Assembly: GCA_965223505.1 (NCBI GenBank)
Contig: CBDCWP010000043.1
Span: forward strand, 64,001 to 128,000
Source of the DNA: Planctomycetota bacterium
Lineage (GTDB): Bacteria > Planctomycetota > PLA2 > JAEUHO01
Direction: 5' to 3'
Length of the DNA: 64,000 nt
In this document: one piece after another, positions 9,513 through 15,742 of the stretch
Layout: each line of letters opens with the position of its first letter
Numbering within the stretch: position 1 is the first letter of the stretch
Notes under the pieces: generated by a model
The model's input: the letters and a program-made list of their open reading frames with translations, nothing else
Told to the model about the DNA's origin: nothing
The model's database searches: none
Translations under genes and position numbers: made by a program

Positions 9513-9563
9513 GATGCGGGACCCCGGGGACGCCGCGCAAACGGGCCCGCAGTGGAGACATCG

Positions 9564-10829
9564 ATGTCGGTCCTTCGCAATGCCAGTGTGGCGCTTTGCC
9601 TGCTCGCGATCGCAGCGGCATGCGGCGAGTCGCCGGCCGGGAAGCAGCCCACGTCTTCGATCGAGCTGAACGCGGACACGTTTGCGGCCCTCCGCGACCA
9701 GATCCAACCGTCCGAGGCCGAGCGTGCGTGGCAGCAGATCGACTGGTATCCGTCCTACGCGGAGGGTCTGCAGGCGGCGTCGGTGCAGCAGAAGCCCGTG
9801 CTCCTGTGGGTGATGAACGGCCACCCGCTCGGCTGTACCTGAAACAACGGTGTCGCGGGCCGGCGGTCCGTGTGGTCGAACCCGGACGTGATCGAAACGG
9901 CGAAGCCGTTCGTGGCGGTCACCGACGAAGTCTGGCGACTGCAGCGCGGCACGGACGCGGAGTGCCGCCACTTTCAGAAGATGGCCGACCAGGGCCACTA
10001 CCGGGCCAAGGGCGGCACGCGCCAGGGCATCTACGTCCTCACGGCGAACGGAACGTTCCTCGCATCGGTCAACGCGCTCGACGCGGCGAAGGTGCTCGAG
10101 ACCATGGAGCAGGGACTCGCCGCGTGGGAAGAGACGTCCGCGGACGCGCGCACGCTCCCCGACGACTGGGACCTCCCGCGCCGCCGCTGGGAGTCGAGCT
10201 ATCCCGAGGACGGTCTGGTGCTGCGTACCCTCAACGCCGACCTCGGGCCGAACGCGGATCGCAAGCGTCTCAATCGCGACCACGTCTGGTTCACGGTCGG
10301 GGAGGCGCGTGGCTGGCTCGGTGCGGATCCGGCTGTCGGCGACGTCCACGAGGTCACGAAGACGATCGTCGAACGGCTCGCGCAGTTTCATCTCGTCGAC
10401 AACGTGCGCGGCCAGACGCTGCCGTTCGCGGCGGAAGAGACCGCGGGGTCCAGGATCACGACGACGGTGCGCTCGCGCGACGGCGACGTCGTGGCGTTCG
10501 GGATCGAGGGAACGACGACCGCGGAGACCGACGGCACGTGGAAGTTGGGCAAGAGCGACTGGACGCCCAAGGAGGCGTTCCCGCGCCGCGTCACGACGAA
10601 GCTGCTCGGCTCCGGCCGCTACGACCTGTCGTCGCGGCGCTTCACGGCGTTCGAGCTGGTCGCGGTGGGGGAGCGCGAGGGGCGGACGAACCTGAACGGG
10701 CGGCGCGACGACGACGTCGGGCCCGCCCCGATCGGGTTCTACTTCGAGCTCGCGCCGGATCGACCGGCGGAGCGCGTCGCGCCCGCGTTCGTCGACATCT
10801 ACGCGGACTGGGTCGTTGACCCGCGCTGA
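9564..10829 (+). CDS. Putative selenoprotein: SelN-like thioredoxin-fold lipoprotein with C-T-U motif (UGA 9840-9842 = Sec93), 421 aa
   Basis: ORFs 9552-9842 and 9870-10829 are in the same frame and separated only by TGA. Readthrough gives KPVLLWVMNGHPLGCT-U-NNGVAGRRSVWSNPDV. Lipobox IAAAC, GGAG RBS before ATG 9564, hairpin downstream of the UGA. Confidence 0.8.
9854..9872 (+). promoter_or_regulatory. Candidate bacterial SECIS hairpin
   Basis: CGCGGGCC-GGC-GGTCCGTG: 8-bp stem with two G-U pairs. G-initiated loop starts 19 nt after the UGA. Confidence 0.6.
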
Positions 10830-11583
10830 CGACGCGCCGACGCCGCGGCGATACGCGTGCCCCAAGCTGGCGGCGCCGCTGCGGCTGACGGGACGCATGG
10901 ACGACCCGCAGTGGGAGCGCGTCCCGTGGACGGAGGACTTCGTCGACATCGAGGGCGACCGCAAGCCCACGCCGCGTCATCGCACGCGCGCCAAGATGTG
11001 CTGGGACGACACCTACTTCTACGTGGCCGCCCGGCTCGACGACCCGCACGTCTTCGCGACGCTGACCGAGAAGAACGCCGTCATCTTCCACGACCCCGAC
11101 TTCGAGATCTTCATCGACCCCGACGGCGACACGCGCCACTACTACGAGTTCGAGATCAACGCGCTCGGCACGATCTGGGAGCTGTACCTGGAGAAGACCT
11201 ACCGCGACGGCGGGCCTGTGCACGAGGGGTACAACCTCGACGGACTGCGGAGCGCGGTGCACGTCGACGGGACGATCAACGACCCGTCGGACGTCGACGG
11301 GGGCTGGTCCGTCGAGGTCGCGATCCCGTGGGAGGCGCTGCGCCTGTTCGCGCGCGAGATGCCCTGCCCGCCCGAGCCGGGCGACGAATGGCGTGTGAAC
11401 TTCTCACGCGTTCATTGGCGCTTCGAGATCGTCGACGGCGCGTATCGCAGGTTTCCGCGCGAGTCGCATCCCGAGGACAACTGGGTGTGGTCCCCCCAAG
11501 GGGTCGTCGACATGCACCGGCCAACGACCTGGGGCTACGTCACCTTCGAGGATCCTGGCGGCGTCAGTGGCGTAGGTGAATGA
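10816..11583 (+). CDS. Carbohydrate-binding family 9-like (DOMON-like) protein
   Basis: DFEIFIDPDGD, YYEFEINALGT, WSVEVAIPW, WRVNFSR, WVWSPQG motifs. Overlaps the upstream stop. Confidence 0.85.
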   Translation: MTRADDAPTPRRYACPKLAAPLRLTGRMDDPQWERVPWTEDFVDIEGDRKPTPRHRTRAKMCWDDTYFYVAARLDDPHVFATLTEKNAVIFHDPDFEIFIDPDGDTRHYYEFEINALGTIWELYLEKTYRDGGPVHEGYNLDGLRSAVHVDGTINDPSDVDGGWSVEVAIPWEALRLFAREMPCPPEPGDEWRVNFSRVHWRFEIVDGAYRRFPRESHPEDNWVWSPQGVVDMHRPTTWGYVTFEDPGGVSGVGE

Positions 11584-14719: not shown

Positions 14720-15742
14720 ATGCGTATCTGCACACTTCTCGGCGCAACCGCGCTCGCGTTCCTTCTCGCCACGACGGCTTGGTCCGAAGGCGGCATCGCC
14801 GTCGGCGAAGAGGCCCCCGACTTCGAGGGCGGTGACGTCCTCAACTCCGAGCCGATCAAGGTCGGCGACCTGAAGGGACGGTTGATCCTGCTGGAGCTCT
14901 TCAGCACGACCTGAGGTCCGTGCAAGACTCAGGTCGGGCACCTGAACGAGCTTCACGAAACGTACGATGGCAAGGGACTCACGGTTCTCTCGGTGACCGG
15001 TGAGGACAGGGACCGAGTCGAGCCCTTCGTCGAGGAGTTCGGCGCGAACTTTCCCATCATGTGCCAGGCACAGTCGGGCGCGTACTCGACGGGCGGCGTT
15101 CCGTCCGCGTACCTGATCGGCGCCGACGGCACCGTCGTATGGCAAGGCCATCCGGGCAATCTCCAGGATTCCGAGATCGAAGGACATCTGAAGGACGTCA
15201 AGAAAGCCGACCGCGTGAGCACGTGGGCCTTCACGATCGTCAAGCAGCTGCCGCCGGTTCCGGACAAGCTCAAGGGCGTCAAGAAGAGCCTCGAGAAGAT
15301 GAAGTTCGGCGCCGCGCTCAAGACCGTGGAAGCGGCGCTTCCGAAGCTCGAAGGCGAAGATCTCGAGGCCGGCGAGGCGATCCGCGACTGGATCGCCGGC
15401 AACGGGAAGACCAGCATGGACAAAGCCGCCACGCTCGTGCGCGAGAACAAGATCTACGACGCGTTCCTCGTGTACGAGGGTGTCGAGGACCGCTTCAAGG
15501 GACACCAGCTCGGCAAGGACGCGAAGGCCGCCGCCAAGGAGCTCAAGAGCGGCAAGGAAACCGGTCTCGAGATCAAGGCATCCGAGAAGCTCATCAAGGC
15601 CAAGAAGGAAATGCGCGGCGAAAAGAAGTTCGAAGACCAGCTCAAGTGCTTGAAGCCGGTTCTCTCGAAGAAGTACGCCGAGACCGCAGCCGGCAAGGAA
15701 GCGGCCAAGATGGCCGAGGACATCGAGGCGAAGCTCAAGTAG
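14720..15742 (+). CDS. Putative selenoprotein: exported TlpA/redoxin-family thiol-disulfide oxidoreductase with U-G-P-C motif (UGA 14912-14914 = Sec65) and Lys-rich helical C-terminal extension, 340 aa
   Basis: ORFs 14720-14914 and 14993-15742 are in frame. Readthrough gives VGEEAPDF...LKGRLILLELFSTT-U-GPCKTQVGHLNELHETYDGKGLTVLSV...GVPSAYLIGADGTVVWQG. The TGA occupies the first Cys of CxxC. Signal peptide present. Confidence 0.9.
14929..14945 (+). promoter_or_regulatory. Candidate bacterial SECIS hairpin
   Basis: TCAGGT-CGGGC-ACCTGA: perfect 6-bp stem. Loop starts 20 nt after the UGA with G at its second position. Confidence 0.68.

Follow-up and report, generated by a model that had tools for sequence, protein, structure and literature searches.

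The window analysed here is a stretch of 64,000 nucleotides from a Planctomycetota bacterium (assembly GCA_965223505.1, contig CBDCWP010000043.1, positions 64,001 to 128,000, forward strand). It contains a gene whose reading frame is crossed by an internal TGA codon; this gene, its protein family and the decoding of the TGA are described below. The start codon ATG is located at 9564-9566. At the N-terminus of the frame (MSVLRNASVALCLLAIAAAC/GES), a hydrophobic core precedes Cys20 (9621-9623). The frame runs to LLWVMNGHPLGCT (...GHPLGCT) and then meets a TGA at 9840-9842, which is codon 93. The two codons before it are TGT (9834-9836) and ACC (9837-9839). Beyond the internal TGA, the frame continues as NNGVAGRRSVWSNPDV and stays open for 328 further codons, up to a terminal TGA at 10827-10829, giving 421 residues in total. 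A preliminary description, made from the sequence, had proposed a lipoprotein frame that ends at the TGA and continues for 328 codons, with a 421-residue read-through product carrying selenocysteine (Sec) at position 93. The frame was reproduced by translation, and the comparison with relatives agrees with Sec at this position. It is highly probable (about 0.85) that this is one gene encoding a 421-residue exported selenoprotein, in which UGA 9840-9842 is decoded as Sec and for which a redox-type mechanism is proposed. The features of the gene are summarized in Table 1.

Table 1. Features of the predicted selenoprotein gene (window coordinates; SECIS, selenocysteine insertion sequence)
Feature	Position	Strand	Basis and details
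Shine-Dalgarno-like GGAG	9554..9557	+	Direct sequence reading; 6 nt 5' of the ATG
Whole selenoprotein gene	9564..10829	+	Translation with TGA=U; 421 codons and terminal TGA, internal UGA (predicted Sec) as codon 93
Predicted signal peptide, ending in lipobox-like A-A-A-C (Cys20)	9564..9623	+	Sequence; N-terminal heuristic on 112 relatives
Thioredoxin-fold domain (model), residues ~51-195, across the UGA	9714..10148	+	AlphaFold2 model, VIA-align, Foldseek
Putative active-site triplet Cys91-Thr92-Sec93 (TGT ACC TGA)	9834..9842	+	Alignment, codon counts, model
Candidate SECIS-type hairpin, arms 9854-9861/9865-9872, loop 9862-9864	9854..9872	+	Pair counts, synonymous constraint, stability peak
Beta-rich C-terminal domain (model), residues 200-421	10161..10826	+	AlphaFold2 model of the domain alone

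Homologues of the protein were first considered at the level of annotated sequences. A word-indexed protein search identified 627 homologues, and lengths and coverage were taken from the best 120 of these. Nearly all of the 120 have 283-351 residues and cover about 67-77% of the query, which corresponds to the part 3' of the TGA. Therefore, gene callers seem to cut the relatives at the TGA likewise. When the profile was searched exhaustively, the relatives amounted to 2,938 representative clusters (50% identity) at E <= 1e-3, with 1,797 at <= 1e-10 and 489 at <= 1e-30; the majority of the best 150 profile matches also begin a few residues past the Sec position. A six-frame search that reads through stops was carried out on 401 genomes of the same phylum, and 128 genomes were matched. 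At least one in-frame TGA was present in 139 of the 150 matches listed, counted over the whole span matched. The TGA frame is kept in relatives down to about 30% identity. In a collection of species-representative genomes, 430 related stretches were found. The best 80 of the 430 titles belong to Planctomycetota (Pirellulaceae, Gemmataceae, Phycisphaerae, Bythopirellula, and Mariniblastus) and to metagenome-assembled genomes of Marinimicrobia/Neomarinimicrobiota; they also include one Saprospirales and one Luminiphilus label, which may be binning errors.

The codon aligned to position 93 was tabulated in 130 homologous stretches, made up of the 30 best loci of the phylum search, 20 weaker matches picked from it (stop-free ones included), and 80 species-representative loci. 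The last were found by the peptide patterns MNGHPLGC and [ACV][ATV]DE[VT]WRLQ and are thus biased to the main group, a bias that the 401-genome sample does not have. The codon is TGA in 123 stretches, TGT in 2, TCG in 2, TCA in 1, GAC in 1, and GTC in 1. The flanking motif MNGHPLGCT-U-[N/G]NG is nearly invariant on both sides of the TGA. In an alignment of 27 sequences (A1), the invariant positions are W61, P78, W82, M84-L89, C91, T92, position 93, N95, G96, and R100.

The region might also be read as two genes: a 92-residue lipoprotein with a genuine TGA stop, and a 319-329-residue cytoplasmic protein starting from GTG 9870 or nearby. This is how gene callers read it, and the database holds the 319-residue product (P0002) together with hundreds of relatives of 305-340 residues. 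TGA is also an ordinary stop elsewhere in the window, including the end of this gene. However, two separate genes are very improbable here, given the retention of frame and TGA at low identity. Homologues with TAA or TAG stops, which the preliminary description had named as evidence to look for against read-through, were not found (0/130). Moreover, stop-free forms with Cys exist, the thioredoxin fold requires residues on both sides of the TGA, the downstream piece lacks the signal peptide carried by 109 of 112 relatives, and synonymous sites 3' of the TGA are constrained. Still harder to credit is a TGA that marks a decayed pseudogene or a mistake of assembly or sequencing. Metagenome-type assemblies can contain lone in-frame stops that are errors, but the same codon is TGA in the great majority of the tabulated stretches, from many genomes. 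The internal TGA is also identical, with 0 differences, in the covering contigs from four public runs, which represent two samples of one study and of which one may be the source of the assembly. No RNA run was among the public runs listed. The G+C content at third codon positions (GC3) is coding-type on either side of the TGA (0.82 and 0.91).

Eleven full-length stop-free homologues were retrieved. Cys occupies the Sec position in 6 of them, so the pairing of Sec and Cys forms that is expected of a selenoprotein family is present; this also answers the Cys/TGA tabulation that had been suggested for position 93. Four of the 11 have a C-x-C site (GCTC, CDC, CNC, and CNC), and two have a lone Cys at the Sec position (STC and QAC). 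In the remaining five, the residue is Ser, Ala, Arg or Asp. The C-x-C forms (P0213, P0158, P0243, and P0252) carry Asn or Asp in place of His87 (GNP/GDP vs GHP), and the single-Cys forms retain His87; a co-variation of His87 with Sec is possible. P0102, a database protein of 404 residues with 90% query coverage, has Trp at the Sec position (ACVW), as would be expected if the gene had been called with TGA read as Trp.

The family also includes paralogues that each carry a TGA. Three of them (L065, L066, and L067) lie on a single contig, G108:C42, two being adjoining. Two others (L063 and L064) are about 9 kb apart on G157:C1. Up to 4 members per genome were seen among the matches listed in the phylum search.

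A GC-rich hairpin was found 3' of the UGA, at the place where the preliminary description had put it. Its stem of 8 bp closes a GGC loop, and the folding energy in a 25-nt context is -12.2 kcal/mol. Counted from the UGA, the stem starts after 11 nt and the loop after 19 nt. The single sequence does not favour a signal: when the 86-nt region was folded alone, the z-score was -0.51 and 62/200 shuffles folded equally well, and the Rfam scan of the whole window gave no family at gathering score. Because a single hairpin is unremarkable in DNA of 68% G+C and Rfam has no match, the case for Sec is based on comparison with relatives. For this purpose, 112 distinct 66-nt stretches around the TGA were aligned without gaps. 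The RNAalifold consensus of the 112 sequences has 3 pairs only (-0.43 kcal/mol), which also speaks against the hairpin. A named helix of 7 pairs, columns 18-24 with 30-36 (window 9854-9860 with 9866-9872), was then examined by pair counts. Standard pairs occupy 83.4% of its cells; the shuffles gave 78.7 +/- 0.6, and 0/500 were as high. When the partners were slid by 1-3 columns as a control, 32-47% were paired. Double-sided changes occur in 6/7 pairs and 47 cells, compared with 17.5 +/- 3.4 in the shuffles, of which 0/500 had as many.

These shuffles ignore the kinship among the sequences, and much of the hairpin conservation is confounded with the conserved amino acids G-R-R-S-V, both of which weaken the pair counts. 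Synonymous sites were therefore examined. The Gly codon at +6 is GGC in 97/101 sequences, with a third-base entropy of 0.27 bits, whereas three other conserved Gly codons nearby have 1.50-1.97 bits. The Arg codon at +8 has G as third base in 83/83. Where the flanking GC3 is low (28 relatives), the GC3 values at codons +5 to +9 are 0.56, 1.00, 0.86, 1.00, and 0.52, compared with 0.04-0.32 in most neighbouring codons. Sliding 25-nt folds of the 112 sequences are deepest at +9 to +15 from the TGA, with means of -8.7 to -8.9 kcal/mol; most other windows of this size have about -2.4 to -5 kcal/mol. The core pairs lie within the minimum-energy fold of 85/112 sequences. In the distant paralogues (L057-L059 and L068), the hairpin seems to be in another register, as read from the alignment, which is a further point against a uniform signal. 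The covariation check proposed earlier thus yielded compensatory changes as well as constraint at synonymous sites. Comparison with relatives suggests that the hairpin is more than chance, and it is likely to be the recoding signal for the UGA. Taken with the codon counts, insertion of Sec at codon 93 in a SelB- and SECIS-dependent manner is well supported by the sequences.

A second, weaker stability peak was observed just 5' of the UGA, in the 25-nt window at about 9816-9840 (start -24; mean -7.1 kcal/mol over the 112 relatives). This window is the most stable one in 17/112 sequences.

The SECIS of E. coli fdhF is similar in that the hairpin lies immediately 3' of the UGA and inside the open reading frame (ORF). 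The minimal fdhF element has a stem spacing of 11 nt after the UGA, as here. The apical loop, with its invariant G (column 26 here), would be another point of resemblance. However, the stem here is short (7-8 bp), the loop has 3-5 nt (CGGCG/GGC), and no bulged U was identified.

The genome containing the window is 92% complete and encodes the machinery for Sec. The tRNA-Sec (69.2 bits), SelB (335.7), SelA (507.2), and SelD (338.1) all score over the curated cut-offs; a lack of this machinery, which had been listed as a possible objection, was thus not observed. The selD match (G000:C8:38315-39232, outside the window) contains one in-frame TGA, and SelD in this genome is probably a selenoprotein too. 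selA is located directly upstream of selD on the same contig.

The structure of the protein was predicted by AlphaFold2 with the 27-sequence alignment. The model has a pLDDT (predicted local distance difference test) of 91.8 and a pTM (predicted template modelling score) of 0.88, and disorder is confined to residues 1-23. Residues ~51-195 form a thioredoxin fold in the model. The best VIA-align match is 3f9u_B (Z 12.3, root-mean-square deviation 3.1, 124 residues aligned), the C-terminal domain of an exported cytochrome c biogenesis-related protein. Further matches include a Thermus thioredoxin (Z 11.1), AGR3 (3ph9_B, Z 10.9), DsbH (2ju5, Z 9.9), and DsbD-gamma (1vrs, Z 8.7), and 16 chains have Z >= 8. 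The Foldseek search with the N-terminal domain concurs (best E-value 7.3e-4, probability 1.00). In the model, strand 79-84 lies 5' of the UGA and helix 95-102 lies 3' of it; therefore, the thioredoxin domain would be complete only in the read-through product. C91-T92-U93 is placed in the loop between this strand and this helix, where thioredoxins carry CxxC. The CxxC/CxxS active-site motif itself is not present, the window protein having C-T-U with one intervening residue.

Sequence-level searches did not identify this domain. In sequence searches of the PDB, neither the single protein nor the profile gave more than chance-level rows. In Pfam, Thioredoxin_7 (PF13899) was matched at 13.9 bits, below its gathering threshold of 27 (E = 0.061); the same sub-threshold match appears in 5/27 members, with a best E of 0.063. 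In NCBIfam, only the VPGUxxT model NF041382 appeared, at the noise level of 11.9 bits against a cut-off of 350 and in 1/27 members.

Residues 200-421, folded alone, form a beta-rich domain with a pLDDT of 94.8. The best VIA-align match of this domain is NspA (Z 6.4, root-mean-square deviation 5.0), which is found together with other generic beta-barrels, and Foldseek gave no match at E <= 1e-3. The C-terminal domain is thus without a clear solved relative, and novelty of the fold is not claimed. Four relatives (L083, L087, L102, and L118) are longer before Sec, with about 202-209 residues instead of the usual 80-100 or so; the difference is an additional stretch of ~120 residues that follows the signal peptide.

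An N-terminal hydrophobic segment is present in 109/112 relatives and a strict lipobox in 36, as called by our own heuristic and by the regular expression [LVI][ASTVI][GAS]C. The family is predicted to be exported to an extracytoplasmic location because 109 of the 112 N-termini have this signal segment. The window copy has A-A-A-C after the hydrophobic core, which is a loose fit to the lipobox, and is probably lipid-anchored; other relatives have plain signal peptides.

The domain was compared with known thioredoxin-fold groups. The group of Thioredoxin_7, DsbD-gamma, DsbH, and AGR/ERp18 shares the fold over residues ~51-195. In the alignment, AGR3 also has the N-terminal signature 'W..-EGL--A----KP-LL' in common with the window protein. 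The Thioredoxin_7 proteins are likewise exported, with a redox site in the loop that joins the first strand to the first helix. However, the window family has C-x-U in place of CxxC/CxxS and a longer active-site loop (GHPLGCTUNNG). The extra beta-rich domain of 220 residues is absent from the Thioredoxin_7 group. Several catalogued selenoproteins also have Sec in a thioredoxin-like site, including Trx7/PDZ NF041199 (CxxU), VPGUxxT NF041382/3, and thioredoxin-like Sec.1 PF13192 (CxU). They are similar in their SECIS inside the ORF and in that their genes are routinely mis-split. None of these models is matched by the window family, and the architecture and motif differ, as far as the part of the literature available to us describes them.

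A table in a 2026 review (PMC13188914) covers 119 families of prokaryotic selenoproteins and gives their domain identifiers. In the part of it available to us, the C-x-U families are rhodanese form 3, UshA-like, ferredoxin-thioredoxin reductase, and thioredoxin-like Sec.1 (PF13192). No model of these families matches the window protein in the Pfam and NCBIfam scans. No matching entry was seen in the accessible portion of the table of 119 families; the comparison was made by Pfam and NCBIfam models, with families defined only in CDD or PANTHER falling outside the scan. The accessible part of the GOS (Global Ocean Sampling) paper (PMC2398784) lists no such family either. No model covering the family is present in Pfam or in NCBIfam release 20.0 (June 2026).

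The preliminary description had further called the protein SelN-like, by resemblance to eukaryotic selenoprotein N (SelN). The two have in common Sec, a thioredoxin-like region, a non-cytosolic compartment, and a membrane tether, and in both this region faces the extracytoplasmic or luminal side. UAS-type and AGR-type folds are also among the structural neighbours (2dlx, Z 8.8; 3ph9_B, Z 10.9). However, the family is improbable as a specific bacterial homologue of SelN. As described in the available part of PMC12839072, SelN has an S-C-U-G site with adjacent Cys and Sec, an EF-hand, and a type II membrane anchor, whereas the window protein has G-C-T-U and a cleavable signal with a lipobox-like end. 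No EF-hand family was matched in Pfam at E <= 1 by the window protein or the 27 members, and no SelN-type family was matched. SelN is named nowhere among the 120 listed homologues (the best 120 of 627) or in the PDB sequence and fold searches, a comparison made by names. Specific kinship with SelN is therefore not supported; very distant shared ancestry within the thioredoxin superfamily is conceivable. The hoped-for bacterial model of human SelN is thus not provided by this family.

With the exception of the SelN-like label, the preliminary interpretation stands. The AlphaFold comparison that it had suggested returned a thioredoxin fold, with the C-x-U site located in it by sequence and model. 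Export of the protein agrees with the signal segments of the relatives, and the periplasmic membrane anchor proposed for it is probable. The large uncharacterised C-terminal domain is also seen in the structure predictions and fold searches. The view of a little-described bacterial family holds for the models and for the accessible parts of the catalogues.

The following mechanism is proposed. SelB carrying Sec-tRNA(Sec) would bind the hairpin and direct Sec to the UGA. The signal peptide would export the protein, and the lipobox-like Cys might give it a lipid anchor. The protein would act as an extracytoplasmic thiol/selenol oxidoreductase with Sec93, at the N-terminal end of helix 95-102, as its nucleophile. 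The intermediate might be resolved by Cys91, which lies two residues before Sec93 and would form an intramolecular selenylsulfide with it (a C-x-U ring). A substrate or partner site may be provided by the C-terminal domain, and an external reductant would recycle the Sec93/Cys91 centre. We infer a redox function. Sec93 would take the place of the attacking N-terminal Cys, as judged from DSSP assignments of the model and the spacing to the conserved 'S-DP-V', rather than from a residue-level structural alignment.

This placement of Sec93, like the hairpin results noted above, leaves the interpretation open to objection, and several other observations weigh against it. Some family members lack the redox site, with Ser, Ala, Arg, Asp or Val at the Sec position. 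One relative (L068, G320:C321:4950-6750) has A-A-G-U, that is, Sec without a Cys at -2, which argues against an obligatory Cys91-Sec93 pair. The single-Cys homologues also weigh against a strict pair. Among 110 loci, no conserved neighbour pointing to a substrate or reductant was found. Another family member (L049), 5 kb from L068 on the same contig, has G-T-G-D and no redox residue.

A different function might be served by a real selenoprotein of this kind, in which His87, Cys91, and Sec93 serve as ligands for a metal or metalloid (such as Cu, Hg, Zn, or As), the protein being a periplasmic chaperone or detoxifier. His87, Cys91, and position 93 are invariant in the 27-sequence alignment, and His and Sec would co-vary, given the exchange of His87 for Asn or Asp in the C-x-C forms. 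Several catalogued bacterial selenoproteins bind metal, according to the accessible part of PMC13188914 (Table 1 therein). However, metal binding is rather unlikely, although less so than kinship with SelN: no metal-binding domain was matched in Pfam or NCBIfam, the fold and the position of the site are of the thiol oxidoreductase type, and no conserved metal-resistance genes lie nearby.

The redox proposal can be extended. The family might represent an almost obligately Sec-dependent extracytoplasmic redox module, with Sec in 123 of the 130 stretches, few Cys forms, and an undescribed Cys-x-Sec selenylsulfide centre: a portable periplasmic 'selenoredoxin' joined to diverse exported enzymes. 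This reading includes the invariant His four residues 5' of the Cys and the beta-rich domain without a solved relative. It is offered tentatively, and is more likely to fail than to hold. Six long database proteins (P0169, P0209, P0230, P0151, P0115, and P0158) join the module to exported domains, and these may be true fusions or merged or read-through gene calls. The joined domains are a PQQ propeller, EEP with LamG, FGE-sulfatase with planctomycete cytochrome/PSD, a Ser/Thr kinase with Kelch, an M28 peptidase, and a SecDF head. A Rosetta-stone link between the EEP fusion (P0209) and the EEP gene of the window was considered and rejected, no similarity being found.

In the gene neighbourhood, the commonest non-overlapping neighbour clusters are present at 15, 14, and 13 of the 110 loci. 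They are a Por_Secre_tail protein and two unannotated ORFs, which probably overlie the upstream symporter gene in other frames. A CBM9-like gene (PF06452, 51.6 bits) at 10816/10898-11583 (+) starts at or just past the end of the selenoprotein gene; it is common to only 6/110 loci, all close relatives. The ORF at 10857-11579 is in another frame than the CBM9-like gene and is probably not a gene. An AhpC/TSA-type ORF is located at 14915-15739 (region 14720-15742, +). The Pfam profile is matched from its position 40 only, at residue 2 of the ORF; therefore, this ORF seems to be without its N-terminal part.

In summary, the analyses suggest a large family of exported thioredoxin-fold selenoproteins with a SECIS inside the ORF, which is absent from the catalogues checked, so far as their accessible parts extend. 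It is distinguished by the C-x-U site, the near-universal Sec, and the beta-rich second domain, without support for kinship with SelN. A family of about 2,900 clusters (50% identity) would be added to the prokaryotic selenoprotein inventory. Thousands of database entries would be truncated 'hypothetical proteins' that lack the active site and the signal peptide. Most bacterial selenoprotein families consist mainly of Cys forms. The presence of Sec in nearly every member of this family points to a need for selenium in its chemistry. For structural and enzymological work, a concrete target is offered by the C-x-U spacing and the second domain. If the 'selenoredoxin' proposal were true, the family would go beyond the Dsb and Trx variants and provide Planctomycetota and Marinimicrobia with a redox relay or catalyst of a new class. 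As the family is common in these two groups, it bears on estimates of microbial selenium demand.

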